From Candidatus Dormiibacterota bacterium (lineage in GTDB: Bacteria > Chloroflexota > Dormibacteria > Aeolococcales > Aeolococcaceae): DNA of 64,000 nt. Where the stretch lies: contig CAWKKS010000001.1 of the NCBI GenBank assembly GCA_963850385.1, positions 1,774,877 to 1,838,876 of the forward strand. Reading direction: 5' to 3'. This document shows, one piece after another, positions 2,858 through 19,321 of this stretch (positions are counted from its first letter, which is position 1; each line of letters begins with the position of its first letter). Under the pieces are notes generated by a model. The model worked only from the letters and a program-made list of their open reading frames with translations, ran no database searches and was not told the origin of the DNA. The position numbers and the translations under genes are program-made.

Positions 2858-4260
2858 CGGCCCTGCGCTCCCAGCAACTCGTCAACGGCGGCGCCGAACA
2901 ACCGCGTGTGCAGCTGCACATCGTCCTCGCTGGTCACCGGGCACATCAGCGCCATGTTGTGGAACGGCGTGATCAGCACGCCCCGGTTGACCATGTAGAG
3001 GTGCAGGTACTCGTCGAGGTCGTCGTCGCCGGCGGCGGCCGACGCGGTGCCAGTGCGGGGCGCGGGCGAGGTGAACCGGTACTCTGCGCGCGCCCCGAGG
3101 CAGCTAACCGACCAGGCCACGCCGGTGCGGTCGATCGTCGCCTGCACGCCGCGCGCAAACATCGTGCCGAGCTCGGTCATGTGCGTGAAGGCCTCGGCGG
3201 TCAACACCTGCTCGAGGGTGGCGCGCATGGCCGCCACTGACAGGGCATTCCCGGCCAGCGTCCCGCCCACCCCGCCGACGTCGACGAGGTCGGCCTCGCG
3301 ATGGCCCGCGATCATCCCCGCCACCACCGTGGTGATGCCATACGCACCGCTGGGGATGCCGCCGCCGATGCTCTTGCCGATCACCAGGATGTCGGGCTGC
3401 AGGCCCCAGAGGCCGGTCGCGCCGCCGGGTCCCGCCGAGAAGGTGTGCGTCTCATCGATCACCAGCAGCGCGCCGTGCGCGGTCGCGAGGCGGCGCAGGC
3501 TCTCGAGGAAGCCTGGCTCGGGCAGCACGATCCCGATGTTGGTGAGCGCCGGCTCGGCGAGGATCGCGGCGACGTCGCCGTGGGCCAGCGCCGCCTCCAC
3601 GCCCGCGAGGTCGTTGAACTCGGCGACACGGGTTGTCGCGTCCAGCGGCACTGGGGCACCGACGTTGCCGGCGCGTGCCACCGCGGCGCCGTCCGGTCCG
3701 GGCACCGCGAAAGCCTCGTCGACGGAGCCGTGGTAGCAGTACGCGAACACCAGCACCTTGGGCCTGCCGGTGGCCAGGCGCGCGAGTCGGAGCGCCCAGC
3801 GATTGGCGTCGGTGGCGGTCAGCGTGAACGACCACAGCGGCAGCCCGAACCTGCGACTGAGCTCCGCGCCCACCCACTCGGCATCGGCGGTCGGCAGCAT
3901 GGTGGTTGCGCCGCCCTGGCGGTCGAGGCGCTCGGCGACGGCGTCGAGCACCGGCCCGGGGTTGTGTCCGGCCATCGCCCCGGTGTCGCCAAGCGCGAAG
4001 TCCACGTACTCGCGCCCGTCGACGTCGAGGATGCGGTTGCCTCCCGCCCGCTGCAGGTAGAGGGGGAAGCCACCGCTCCATTTGGCCATCCAGGTCATCG
4101 GCACGCGGCCGAAGAGGTGGTCAGCGGCCGCGAACAGCTCGGCCGAGCGGGGGTGCGTGGTCGCGTACTGTTCGCGTTCGCGCGCGACCAGGGAGGCGAG
4201 GCGGGCGCGATCGATCCCAGGCACCGGCCGACTGTGCCGGATTGGACCGGCTGACGTCAC
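2854..4260 (-). CDS. Class III PLP aminotransferase (glutamate-1-semialdehyde aminomutase-like)
   Basis: [30 protein letters not shown] (PLP Lys), GGTLAGN. Confidence 0.85.
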
Positions 4261-4338
4261 GCCGTGAGGTTGACCCGGATCGAGGCCAGGACACGGTCCC
4301 CCGCCGCCAGCAGGACCGCGATCGCCCTGGTCCGTGCC

Positions 4339-14143: not shown

Positions 14144-15251
14144 TTACGCCGCGGTCTCTCGTGCCGACCAGCGCAGGTAGGCCTCCATGAAGGGGTCGAG
14201 GTTGCCATCCAGCACCGACTGCGCGTTGCCCACCTCCGCCCCGGTGCGGTGGTCCTTGACCATCGTGTAGGGGTGCAGCACGTAGGAGCGGATCTGGCTC
14301 CCCCACTCCGCCGGCATCGACTCGCCGCGCAGCTCAGCGACGTGTTCGGCGTGTGCCGCCTGCTTGAGGGCGAGCAGCCTCGAGCGCAGCACGCGCCAGG
14401 CGACATCGCGGTTCTGGTGCTGCGAACGTTCGTTCTGGCAGGTGACCACCACGCCCGTGGGGATGTGCGTCAGGCGGATCGCCGACGACGTCTTGTTGAC
14501 GTGCTGCCCACCCGCGCCGCTGCTGCGGTACACGTCCTCGCGCACGTCCTTGGGGTCGATGTCGATGTCCACGGCGTCCTCGATCTCCGGCGTCACCTCG
14601 ACGAGCGCGAACGATGTGTGGCGGCGCGCGGCTGAATCGAAGGGACTGATGCGGACCAGGCGATGAACCCCGCGCTCGCTCTTGAGCAGGCCGAAGGCGT
14701 GCGGACCGGTGATGCGCAGGGTCGCCGACTTGATGCCCGCCTCATCGCCGGGTGACTCGTCGATGAACTCGGCTGTGTACTTGCGCTCCTCCGCCCAGCG
14801 CAGGTACATGCGCATCAGCATCTCCGCCCAGTCCTGCGAGTCGGTGCCGCCGGCGCCCGCGTGGATGCCCACGATGGCCGGGTTCTCGCTGTACGGGTCG
14901 CTGTAGAGCAGCTCCAGCTCGCGGCGATCCAGCTCCTTCTCGAGCACGTCGAGCTCTGAGGAGACCTCCGCGGTCACCACCTCGTCGGGATCGGCTTCCA
15001 CCATCTCGCCGAGGTCCACGGCGTCGGCGGTTCGTCTCTCGATGTCGGAGACGGCCGCGATCTCCTCGCGCAGCCGTGAGGCCTCCTGGGTCATGGTCGC
15101 GGCAGAACGCGGGTCATCCCACAGCGCCGGGTCGTTGATGGCGACGTCGAGCTCGCGCAGGCGCGCTCGTTTGGCGTCCAGGTCAAAGGTGGCCGAGCAG
15201 CTCGTCTGCCCTGGCCTTGATCTCCTGTGCACGCGTCGACAGCTCGCCCAT
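14144..15251 (-). CDS. prfB: Peptide chain release factor 2 with programmed +1 frameshift
   Basis: ATG at 15251, MGELSTRAQEIKARADELLGHL, then CTT TGA C (15188-15182), continuing DLDAKRARL; SPF and GGQ motifs. Confidence 0.95.
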
Positions 15252-15439
15252 GAGGACCGAGTGTACCGGGCACCGGAGGGCGGACCGCACCACCCGGCCA
15301 GGCTGAAGCGACCTCGGTGCAGCGCAGCGACTGCCGGCGCCGCTGCGCCGACCCGCCACCCCGGTGCGCTAAGCTCGGTCTGAACGTCGCGATGACCGTG
15401 GGGGCACGGGCCGTGACACCGCGTCAACATGAGGTGCGT

Positions 15440-15547
15440 ATGCTCGCATTCAGAATTTTCGGAACCAAGGAAATCATCGTTTACGTCGTCGTGATCGTCC
15501 TCATCATCGCCGGCGCCATCTACATGCGCACACGGTCCCGCCCCTAA
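15440..15547 (+). CDS. 35-aa single-TM microprotein A
   Basis: GAGGTG SD; MLAFRIFGTKEIIVYVVVIVLIIAGAIYMRTRSRP; paralogue at 16262. Confidence 0.75.
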   Translation: MLAFRIFGTKEIIVYVVVIVLIIAGAIYMRTRSRP

Positions 15548-15591
15548 GGGCGGTCGGACAGCGCCATCGAACCACTGCGTACCATCGCCGA

Positions 15592-16107
15592 ATGAGCGGT
15601 GTCCTTTCGGTTCCTGACCAGCGTGAGAATCCGCCCTCGGGGCGTGATGAGCGCGAAACCCTCATCGCCTTCATCGACAGCTATCGCGACGCCGTCCTGA
15701 TCAAGCTGGATGGCCTCGACCGCGAACAACTGTGCCGACGCTTGCTGCCGTCCCGCACCACGCTGCTGGGCATCGTCAAGCACCTCATCCTCGTCGAGGA
15801 ATGGTGGTTCGAGTGCGTGCTGGCCGGTGGTCCCGAGCCGTACGAGGATCCTGATGACCCCGACTCGGAATGGCTGATCACCGAGGCGGACGATCCTGCG
15901 GCCATCGTGGCCGAGTACCGCGCACGGTGCGCGCGCAGCAATGAGATCGCTCGATCGCTGCCCACGCTCGACGTTCGCGGACCGGGACCGCACCGCCCCG
16001 AGATCACCGCGCGGTGGGTCCTCGTGCACATGGTCGACGAGACTGCGCGCCACGCCGGCCACGCCGACATCATCCGCGAGCTGATCGACGGCCGCACCGG
16101 CGAGTAG
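15592..16107 (+). CDS. DinB/DUF664 family protein
   Basis: TLLGIVKHL..VE..W and HMVDETARHAGHADI.RE.IDG; TACCAT 6 nt before ATG (leaderless). Confidence 0.88.
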   Translation: MSGVLSVPDQRENPPSGRDERETLIAFIDSYRDAVLIKLDGLDREQLCRRLLPSRTTLLGIVKHLILVEEWWFECVLAGGPEPYEDPDDPDSEWLITEADDPAAIVAEYRARCARSNEIARSLPTLDVRGPGPHRPEITARWVLVHMVDETARHAGHADIIRELIDGRTGE

Positions 16108-16261
16108 GTCGGCCCTCAGCCGCCCAGGGCAGGCACGCCAACCAGGACGGTGGCGACCGGGGCTGCGTCGCGGGCGCGACATCACGGCGGCTACGCTAAG
16201 CTCGCGCGGCGCGCGGCCGAACGCGTCGCATCAGCGCGCCATCGAGGAGGGAGAGATTCGC

Positions 16262-16369
16262 ATGCTGGCATTGAGCCTCACCGGGACCAAGGCGATCATC
16301 GCCTACGTCATCGTCATCGTCATCGTCGTTGTCGCCATCGGGATGTACTACACCCGCGGTCGCCGCTAG
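16262..16369 (+). CDS. 35-aa single-TM microprotein B (absent from ORF track)
   Basis: GAGGAGGGAG SD; MLALSLTGTKAIIAYVIVIVIVVVAIGMYYTRGRR; 16/35 identical to microprotein A without gaps. Confidence 0.75.
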   Translation: MLALSLTGTKAIIAYVIVIVIVVVAIGMYYTRGRR

Positions 16370-16378
16370 GGCGCGTTC

Positions 16379-19321
16379 TCAGCGGCCGTGGCAGAGCTTG
16401 TACTTCCTGCCGCTGCCGCAGGGGCACGGCTCGTTGCGCCCCACCTTGCGCTTGCCGGTGCCGACCGCAACACCGCCTGACGGTACGGCCGGGGCGGAGG
16501 CGCCGCCACCCCCGTTGCCCGGGGTGGCCAGTGAGCGAGTCCCGGCAGAGGACGACTCGACGATGTTGGTCAGCGCCGGCTGCGCCAGCGGGCTGAGCGG
16601 CGCCGGCCGGGGCGCGCCGGTGGCGCGGGCGAGCGCGGCGCTGGCGGCCGCAGCAGCGGGGCGTGCGGGTGGGGGCGCGTCCTCGGACATCACTGCCCCG
16701 GCGCTGTCGGCACGGCCGCCGCGTGGAGCGACGGCCTCACTGGCGGCGTCGGTGGGATCGCTCGGGGCGGTCTCGACGCGCTGGATCTGCACGTGCATGA
16801 GCAGGCGAACGATGTCGGCCTTGATGTCGGCGGTGAGCCCCTGGAACGACTCGAACGCTGCCTGCTTGTACTCCACCAGCGGGTCCTTCTGACCGTACGC
16901 CTGGAGATTGATGCCCTCACGCAGGTGCTCCATGTCGGTGAGGTAGGCGCGCCACTTGGTGTCGATCACGTTGAGCATCAACGACTGCTCAACCGAGCGC
17001 ATCAGCTCGGCGCCGTACTGCTGCTCACGCTCCTCGTACAGCGCGGTCATCTCGCCCACCAGCGTGTCCGCGATGTCGTCGACGCCGTCGCCCAGGCTGT
17101 CGAGGTTGACCGTCTCCAGCTCCGGCAGCGGCGCGATCTGGCGCATCCGCTCCCAGAGGCCCTCGAGGTCCCAGTTCTCGCGGTGCCGGCCCTCGCAGTA
17201 GCCGGGAACCTCGTCGCGCACCGTCTGCTCCAGCATCGACATCAGGTTCTCGCGGGTGTCGGTGCCCTCGAGGATCTTGCGACGTTCGCCGTAGATGATC
17301 TCGCGCTGCTTGTTCATGACGTCGTCGTACTCGACGACGTAGCGCCGGGCGTCGAAGTTGGAGCCCTCGACGCGCGATTGCGCGCCCTCGATCTGCCGCG
17401 AGACCAGGCGGTTCTCGATGGGCACGTCCTCCTCGATGTGGAGGCGGTCCATGATCCCCTGCATCCGCTCGCCACCGAAGACGCGCATCAGGTCGTCCTC
17501 GAAGGAGAGGAAGAAGCGGGTCTCGCCGGGGTCACCCTGGCGGCCGGCGCGACCGCGCAACTGGTTGTCGATGCGCCGTGACTCGTGCCGCTCGGTGCCG
17601 ATGATGTAGAGGCCGCCGATGTCGGTCACCCCCTCACCCAGCACGATGTCGGTGCCGCGACCGGCCATGTTGGTGGCGATGGTCACCGAGCCGCGTTGCC
17701 CGGCGTCGGCCACGATCTGCGCCTCGCTCTCGTGGAACTTGGCGTTGAGCACGCTGTGCGGGATGCCCCGCTTCTCGAGGAGTCGGGACAGACGCTCGCT
17801 CTTCTCGATGCTGGTGGTGCCGACCAGCACCGGCTGTCCCACCGTGTGGCGCTCGGCGATCTCCTCGCCCACCGCCTTGAACTTGGCCTCCTCGTTCTTG
17901 TAGATCAGGTCGGTCTCGTCATTGCGGATCATCGGCTGGTTGGTGGGGATCGGCACCACCTCGAGCTTGTAGATCTTGTCGAACTCCTCCGCCTCGGTCA
18001 GCGCGGTGCCGGTCATGCCGGCCAGCTTGTCGTAGAGGCGGAAGAAGTTCTGGAAGGTGATCGTCGCCAGCGTGATGTTCTCCTGCTGGACCTTGACGCC
18101 CTCCTTGGCCTCGATGGCCTGGTGGAGGCCGTCCGACCAGCGCCGCCCGGGCATGGTGCGACCGGTGAACTCGTCGACGATGATCACCTCGCCGTCGCGC
18201 ACGATGTAGTCGCGGTCGCGCAGGTAGAGCGCATGCGCCTTGAGCGCCTGGTTGATCTGGTGCGCCTCGGCGACGTGCTCGAGGTCGTAGACGTTCTTGA
18301 TGCCCGTCCACTTCTCGATCTTGGCAACGCCCTCGTCAGTGAGCGCGGCCGACTTCGACTTCTCGTCGATGGTGAAGTCGTCCTCGACGACCAGGCGCGG
18401 GATCAGCCGCGCGTAGGTGTAGTACTTCTCGGTGGGCTCGTTGCCCTGGCCGCTGATGATCAGCGGGGTGCGCGCCTCGTCGACGAGGATGGAGTCGACC
18501 TCGTCCACGATCGCGTAGTGGAGATGACGCTGCACGCAGCGGTCGAGCGACTGGGCCATGTTGTCGCGCAGGTAGTCGAAGCCGAGCTCGTTGTTGGTGG
18601 CGTAGGTGATGTCGGCGGCGTAGGCCTCGCGCCGCGAGCACGGGCGCAGGTGCTGCAGGCGCGGGTCAGGGTGGGTCTCGTCGAGGTAGTCGGGGTCGTA
18701 GATGTAGCCGAAGTCGGGGTTGTCGACAGGGCCGGGAACGATCACCGCCACGCTCATGCCGAGCGCGGCATACAGCGGGGCGTTCCAGCCGGCGTCGCGG
18801 CGGGCCAGGTAGTCGTTGACGGTGACCAGGTGGGCCCCGCGACCCTCGAGGGCGTTGAGGTACAGCGGCAGCGTGGCGACCAGCGTCTTGCCCTCTCCGG
18901 TGCGCATCTCGGCGATGCGCCCCTGGTGCAGAACGATGCCCCCGATGAGCTGCACGTCGTAGTGGCGCATCCCCAGGGTGCGGCGGGCGGCCTCACGCAC
19001 CACCGCGAACGCCTCGGGCAGCAGGTCGTCGAGGCCGCGCCGGCGCTCGGCGACGCGCTCGGCGGCCTCCTTGCGGGCGTACTCCGTGGCGGCGTCCTCC
19101 TCATCGCTGCCGCGCAGGCTCTGGGAGAAGGTCTGGCCGAAGGTGAGGTCGGGCCCGGTCACGCCGAGGCGGGCACGGAGGTCATCGGTCTTGGCGCGCA
19201 GCTCGGCGTCACTGAGCGCCTGCAGCTCCGGCTCAAACGCGTTGATCCGGTCGACGGCGCCGCGGTGCCGCCTGATCTCGCGGTTGATCGGGTCGCCGAG
19301 GATCTTGGTGAGAACGGGCAT
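16379..19321 (-). CDS. secA: Preprotein translocase ATPase SecA
   Basis: [38 protein letters not shown]-terminal [13 protein letters not shown]; ATG at 19321. Confidence 0.97.

Follow-up and report, generated by a model that had tools for sequence, protein, structure and literature searches.

Twin microprotein genes between secA and prfB belong to an apparently undescribed family of predicted membrane peptides in Dormibacteria

Introduction

Two open reading frames (ORFs) of 35 codons each flank a DinB-fold gene between secA and prfB in a Candidatus Dormiibacterota genome (assembly GCA_963850385.1). Are they genes, to what family do they belong, and what might their products do? A first-pass annotation of the window (the whole stretch of 64,000 nt analysed here) had read them as a co-regulated pair from an undescribed microprotein family, inserted between secA and prfB on the opposite strand, with a TatA-like helix start and a possible role as translocon accessory, type I toxin-like peptide or stress peptide. 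The two ORFs were followed up by comparison with related genomes and with protein, profile, viral and structural databases. The family is apparently real and undescribed; the reading of the twins as a co-regulated insertion fared less well.

Organisation of the secA-prfB locus

The following features were located in the window.

14144..15251, minus: prfB, flank divergent from copy 1, with a CTT TGA C +1 frameshift site at 15188-15182
15367..15377, plus: 11-mer of copy 1, including a -10 box at 15370-15375, 64 nt 5' of the ATG; putative promoter, from its family-wide position
15431..15436, plus: SD-like GAGGTG of copy 1 (GAGG at 15431), read from sequence
15440..15547, plus: microprotein copy 1, 35 aa, G-T-K-E type, this genome's extra copy
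15538..15553, plus: GC hairpin of 6 bp (predicted fold) spanning the copy 1 stop codon, without U tract
15580..15585, plus: TACCAT -10 box 6 nt 5' of the ATG of the DinB-fold gene, leaderless layout; presumptive own promoter
15592..16107, plus: DinB-superfamily protein, mycothiol-S-transferase-like, 171 aa (best match Pfam MST PF04978, E 5.5e-46)
16194..16204, plus: 11-mer of copy 2, including a -10 box at 16197-16202, 59 nt 5' of the ATG
16245..16254, plus: SD-like GAGGAGGGAG of copy 2, read from sequence
16262..16369, plus: microprotein copy 2, 35 aa, G-T-K-A type, at a secA-facing site common to five congeners
16379..19321, minus: secA, convergent flank; its stop codon starts 10 nt past the copy 2 stop

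The arrangement originally described, a DinB gene between the twins with secA and prfB on the opposite strand, was thus confirmed. The DinB gene does not encode DNA polymerase IV. A terminator scan returned 0 sites, the hairpin at the copy 1 stop codon not being scored as one.

The two ORFs are identical at 16 of 35 residues without gaps, as first stated, and at 68 of 108 nucleotides. Their local alignment score of 75 was reached in 0 of 20,000 shuffles preserving the layout of N-terminal part, helix and tail; the best-scoring unrelated small hydrophobic ORF of the genome gave 37. Three other small hydrophobic ORFs with SD signals, of 26, 35 and 51 aa and unrelated by score, were seen in the same genome:

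C1:289970-290050, minus: small hydrophobic ORF
C1:1603850-1603957, minus: small hydrophobic ORF
C1:274358-274513, plus: small hydrophobic ORF

The similarity had been said to persist despite diverged codons. Other codons are used at 5 of the 16 identical residues and the same codon at the remaining 11, so that the description holds in part; in the ungapped register pS was 0.39 (10.5 of 27.2 sites) and pN 0.38 (28.5 of 74.8 sites). Because most shared residues keep their codon and pN equals pS, the twin pair alone is no proof of coding. What points to coding is the family as a whole rather than the pair.

Extent of the family

Taxonomic families (f) and genera (g) are given as codes. Counted from the profile-search table, the family occurred in 144 of 374 genomes of the class (Dormibacteria) at a best E<1e-5: 86/116 in f1 plus the host (G000), 34/43 in f3, 23/159 in f4, 0/44 in f2 and 0/11 in f5, the f4 count being a floor, as a wider profile added f4 members (four full ORFs and two divergent ones). 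A 28-row profile gave matches in 191/374 class genomes at E<=0.005. Five further, more complete or less fragmented genomes of lineages without matches yielded nothing better than E 0.018. Copy number was nearly always one, with two full copies in 5 of the 144 genomes among the 150 matches listed, and full-length relatives of copy 1 were found in 13 of 18 congeners.

From fetched loci, which lean to the best matches and are not a random sample, 95 genes were kept. Left out of 97 candidates were L058 and L144 (weak and doubtful), as were two more without a start call; L058 holds a similar Gly-rich leaderless ORF of 29 aa. The tallies take in unpublished genomes (G013, G015, G558, G571, G572, G658, G659, G667, G692 and G721). 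G013 is one row of alignments A1-A3 and of the trees and one of six secA-facing copies; the conclusions are independent of it.

Protein databases held 319 matching proteins at E<=0.001, and 57 cluster representatives, of which one was a long repeat protein judged spurious. Among the matches listed (120 of 319), names were only hypothetical or uncharacterised membrane protein. The ESM Atlas gave three unnamed clusters at 0.80, which serve as a lead only. No curated cut-off was reached in Pfam or NCBIfam, and matches in these, PHROGs and the PDB were weak and generic for helices. Kinship with YajC was rejected, since only 4/90 members touched the YajC model at E 0.03; YajC itself had no match in the 86%-complete host genome. 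None of 22 candidates from viral contigs belonged to the family and none was found in phage or plasmid records. Beyond the class, matches in phylum samples of 401 were limited to the helix and lay inside long frames; the two best (G183 and G054) were rejected as members, being anchors of long proteins.

Six metagenome contigs (L156-L161) carry variants of 41-42 aa with the same promoter layout and an N-terminal extension, acidic in four. The protein encoded by one neighbouring gene shows 57-66% identity to those from other Chloroflexota families but no more than 38% to any from Dormibacteria, which hints at a host in Chloroflexota outside Dormibacteria; however, 8 genomes of those other families gave no family match. 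Two divergent members were added (L201:1501, minus; L202:1501, plus). L201 mixes both motif types described below (Y-L-x-T-T, then T-K-E-I) and appears to join the G-x-K and T-N-K subfamilies.

The view that the family is undescribed held as far as the searches went: homologues were found across related genomes, and none of the curated families searched was reached. In the literature searched (small proteins, small ORFs and metaproteomics of Dormibacterota, Dormibacter and Aeolococcus; subscription journals, smORF catalogues and supplements fell outside its scope) no description was found.

Protein layout and coding evidence

Members are 32-50 aa long, with 94/95 start calls giving fewer than 50 aa. 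They begin with a short, hydrophobic N-terminal part, L-x(5)-G-T-K-[EHA] or L-I-[TS]-T-A-I-T-[TP]-N-K. Next come I-I, a Val/Ile-rich stretch without charges that is mostly 18-20 residues long and closes with Trp, Tyr or Phe, and an Arg-rich tail. In G-x-K type sequences the hydrophobic span was 18-20 residues in 209/223, and Tyr stood four residues after the polar position in 223/223. That position was E in 54%, H in 27% and A in 19% (weighted) of this type and is K in the T-N-K type. The G-x-x-E motif noted earlier is present in copy 1 only, and copy 2 has Ala at the E position. No charged residue occurred in the helix core of 94/94 sequences, and the charge was +3.0 for the tail and +0.4 for the N-terminal part. 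AlphaFold2 predicted one helix (residues 9-32, pLDDT 84). Val and Ile make up about 77% of the helix, which carries little sequence detail, and no conserved helical face was detected (100-degree moment, p 0.33 and 0.67). Conservation was concentrated at the motif and first helical turns, the C-terminal half varying in length, with the invariance of motif K, G and I partly by construction because these were used for picking rows of the conservation alignment.

The annotation of the ORFs as real genes was borne out by dN/dS. On a 21-codon core, values were 0.35 in 64 genes of G-x-K type and 0.23 in 30 of T-N-K type, with pairs non-independent and synonymous sites close to saturation; shifted frames gave 0.73-3.3. 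The family is thus under purifying selection. Variation was lowest at second codon positions (0.07 and 0.05, compared with 0.31 and 0.34 at third positions). ATG is the start codon in 87/95 genes, three different stop codons are used, and GGAG or GAGG precedes 56 of 62 leadered genes. On the gene tree (few columns) the genus labels required 30 changes, where the minimum is 26 and the shuffled mean 65.6; the tree follows host genera.

Promoter element

The twins had been described as sharing an 11-mer and as each having its own SD. Both statements hold: within the 2.49 Mb assembly CGCTAAGCTCG is confined to positions 15367 and 16194, and GAGG at 15431 and GAGGAGGGAG at 16245 precede the two starts. 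Co-regulation through the 11-mer was not sustained. A hexamer TA-[ACG]-[ACG]-[ACG]-T (as TAAGCT, TAGGCT, TAGGAT, TAGACT or TACACT) lies 5' of 84/95 family genes; its frequency was 7% in random windows and 19% after shuffling of the upstream regions. In f1 it stands mostly 56-66 nt 5' of the ATG, with an SD. In 14/95 genes it stands 6-8 nt 5' of the start, a leaderless layout, and for this reason it is taken as a -10 box. For the shared 11-mer, homology of promoters is the best reading: a general TANNNT box kept by descent rather than a regulator site.

In the host genome, TANNNT was found 5-8 nt 5' of the start of 218 of 2,196 called genes, which suggests much leaderless translation. TACCAT is the commonest hexamer among these 218 leaderless-like starts, and prfB has a leaderless-type TACACT 8 nt 5' of its ATG (15265-15251, minus). 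TAAGCT is rare (16 in the genome) and absent from the 15 commonest leaderless-like forms.

History of the locus

In G001 and G003 the order is secA, microprotein (opposite strand), ECF sigma factor, anti-sigma-like gene, DinB-fold gene (opposite strand) and prfB. The window lacks the ECF sigma/anti-sigma pair and, next to prfB, has a second microprotein copy. In the tree, copy 2 clusters with its G003 counterpart (support 99/95; 86% nucleotide identity) and copy 1 is nearer to other congeners; a tree with the twins as sisters was rejected (AU p 0.0026). This is therefore no fresh tandem duplication, the twins not being sisters. Nor is it an inserted cassette, since in G001 and G003 the interval from secA to prfB already contains a single copy together with the DinB-fold gene. 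We propose that two old variants came to occupy one site, either as old paralogues or with one gained from a congener; the doubling beside secA is likely a local accident. The DinB-fold gene is resident beside prfB in G001 and G003 and is no conserved partner of the microprotein.

The scan of called neighbours took in 71 of the 90 upstream genes and 66 of the 92 on the downstream side (137 in total; near-duplicates and secA dropped). They vary by genus and include oligoribonuclease, AI-2E, prephenate dehydratase, diadenylate cyclase, SRAP and primase genes, among others, and no same-strand neighbour was nearer than 10 nt. In f3 (L105-L115) the gene adjoins diadenylate cyclase in g20 and a c-di-AMP receptor gene in g27, probably through synteny. 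G448 holds two diverged variants, of His and Glu type, 1.6 kb apart (L139:2528-2650 and 4225-4338) between aldo-keto reductase and patatin genes.

Discussion

The twins are diverged paralogues of a conserved, mostly single-copy Dormibacteria gene. Its product is predicted to be a microprotein that crosses the membrane once; with its conserved N-terminal motif it may attach to a larger membrane protein and tune or stabilise it. This is our preferred reading, held tentatively at a little under an even chance. Each gene would have its own transcript from the housekeeping sigma factor. The N-terminus would lie outside and the Arg-rich tail inside, as the positive-inside rule predicts. A membrane partner would be bound through L-x(5)-[GT]-[TP]-[KN]-[EHAK]-I-I and the first helical turns, because this is the invariable part and the C-terminal half differs in length between members. 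The twin would have arisen with two old variants ending up at one site in this genome, in a region that also lacks the ECF sigma/anti-sigma pair of its relatives. The gene is probably dispensable, since several near-complete genomes lack a match.

As expected of accessory microproteins, the members are conserved ORFs of fewer than 50 aa with one predicted membrane helix. AcrZ, MgtS, MgtR and MgtU are described as acting on larger membrane proteins to which they bind (PMC10710835). The Dormibacteria peptide stands alone, is inherited vertically and is probably dispensable; with its single helix and fixed juxtamembrane motif it comes closest to such peptides, hence our preference. Against it, a long lateral interface might leave a conserved helical face, and none was seen; a Val/Ile-rich helix with little detail would also fit a lipid-facing or self-assembling peptide. 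Family presence was tracked neither by flp (40/41 genomes) nor by tatC.

The strongest competitor, which we consider unlikely, is that the membrane peptide is abundant, associates with itself and alters how the bilayer packs in cold, drying or dormancy, with no need of a protein partner. Its shape would be that of inovirus major coat proteins, which have a short outer part, one helix and a basic inner tail. The Val/Ile-rich helix without a conserved face suits it, as do sequence-level signals for strong expression in most copies, the longer variants with acidic or hydrophobic N-terminal extensions, and the 5/90 members that touch phrog_7106 'major head protein' (best E 5e-4). Same-strand downstream neighbours are a patatin gene in 12 and a phosphoesterase gene in 4 of the 66 scanned, which could hint at lipids, but these are limited to related genera of one family. 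Against a coat-like peptide stand the lack of an inovirus coat among PDB matches at E<=10, the lack of members in viral contigs, phage or plasmid records, and G/A-xxx-G/A motifs in only 19/253 sequences. No inovirus morphogenesis gene was found among the 137 neighbours scanned.

A type I toxin or persistence peptide, depolarising the membrane and held off by antisense RNA or a convergent transcript, is improbable. The protein shape proposed for it stood: fewer than 70 aa, hydrophobic, one helix and an aromatic, charged C-terminus fit search traits given in PMC2887945, as does the near-tandem pair here and in G448. Because that paper finds no lateral spread of type I loci, inheritance by vertical descent does not count against a toxin (PMC2887945). 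A convergent transcript could act as antisense, and 49 of 92 downstream neighbours are convergent. The tested locus traits went the other way. The 14 leaderless genes have no leader to hide the start, and leaders were no more folded than shuffles (mean z -0.39; below -1.5 in 8/62). Antisense -10 boxes were found in 19/95 genes, against a background of 19%. Flanks at this locus are short (44 nt and 9 nt), no Rfam match was found at E<=1, and two full copies are as rare as counted above.

About as improbable, and further-reaching, is a lineage-signature membrane peptide of soil Chloroflexota, kept throughout Dormibacteria history while its ORF, self-contained with its own promoter, moved from site to site on the chromosome. 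Exchange at its polar position (Glu, His, Ala or Lys) would mark variants able to switch a core machine in the membrane of these bacteria, which feed on trace gases and are prone to dormancy. If so, genomes with two variants side by side, the host and G448, would tune the machine both ways.

A Tat or Sec accessory, for instance a bare helix of TatA type sitting in the polar site of TatC and so dampening export, is more doubtful still. The invariant Ile is preceded by E, H, A or K; H, K, Q and E are reported at the TatA/TatB polar position (PMC5201420), and host TatA proteins have His there. Copy 2 faces secA, and tatC occurs in 342/374 class genomes. Kinship with TatA, suggested in the first-pass annotation, failed on two counts: HHalign against 21 class TatA N-termini gave a probability of 9-12%, and the g13 genomes G433 and G193 (81% and 92% complete) keep the gene with no tatC or tatA match. 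In these incomplete assemblies Tat has likely been lost. Conversely, tatC is present in 42/44 f2 and 10/11 f5 genomes, where no strong family match was found. The span of 18-20 residues, without hinge or amphipathic helix, differs from the definition of TatA/B by a 12-residue hydrophobic helix, a hinge and an amphipathic helix (bioRxiv 10.1101/2021.05.26.445790). Ala replaces the polar residue in about one-fifth of G-x-K sequences (weighted), the host already has tatA (2), tatC, secE and secG, and 17 members gave no PF02416 match at E<=1. Nor did context favour a translocon accessory, only 6 of 95 genes facing secA, all in one genus and convergent. Co-folding of copy 1 (alignment A3) with host TatC (A6) scored 0.00, a value given no weight either way as controls were not folded.

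Equally doubtful is that a membrane protease or sortase-like enzyme takes the protein as precursor or decoy, with its hydrophobic N-terminal peptide of 7-10 residues set free as a signal. The motif-helix-basic tail layout resembles C-terminal sorting signals, conservation lies outside the helix, and weak matches were found to GVDTG_CTERM (12/90, best E 0.002) and LPXTG_anchor (10/90, best E 0.013). These are generic and under curated significance, there is no LPxTG consensus, and no receptor or protease gene recurs among the 137 neighbours scanned. Peptide signals of this kind can be strain-specific; the motif is near-identical across many g18 species.

Finally, that the ORFs go untranslated and owe their conservation to RNA or chance is barely credible, given the quiet second codon positions, the ATG starts, varied stop codons and SD sequences, and the 319 database proteins.

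The work defines a family of 32-50 aa, absent from the curated libraries searched and widespread in an abundant uncultured soil class. With a profile, start sites and promoters in hand, the family can be tested by Ribo-seq or peptidomics, and the leaderless copies pin the housekeeping -10 box of the class. A new mechanism is not yet revealed, and what made the window stand out (the twins, the shared 11-mer and the adjoining secA) is local.

Comparison with known systems

Ecr, a regulatory small membrane protein (NCBIfam NF033861), was the most frequent weak match (23/90 members at E<=0.1, best 7e-4); neither window copy matches it at E<=1, and the likeness looks compositional. Flp pilins (PF04964) share small size and a Val/Ile-rich helix. 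They differ in that the prepilin G-x(4)-E-Y is missing here (E stands 3 and Y 7 residues after G, and the T-N-K type has neither), and no PF04964 profile match was obtained. Four true flp genes, nearly identical in their mature parts, were found in the host, and flp is present in 16/16 f2 genomes that lack the microprotein family. TatA, TatB and TatE (PF02416) are like the family in their short N-terminal stretch and probable N-out orientation and, for the members with E, H or K there, in a polar residue at the helix start. The resemblance to inovirus coats, one of general shape, lies in the short outer part, single helix and basic inner tail; the family differs in lacking a PDB match or any viral or plasmid occurrence in the records searched, and in being chromosomal and vertically inherited.

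With Ibs, Ldr/Fst and ZorO (PMC2887945) the family shares small size, hydrophobicity, a charged aromatic tail and an occasional nearby duplicate. It departs from them in its short flanks, leaderless members and mostly single copy, with no sign of an antisense promoter or folded leader. AcrZ, MgtS, MgtR and MgtU show no sequence match to the family and have known partners and mostly known inducing signals (PMC10710835). They are nonetheless its closest counterparts in kind: fewer than 50 aa, one helix and a separate small gene, with partner binding by the Dormibacteria peptides proposed by analogy.
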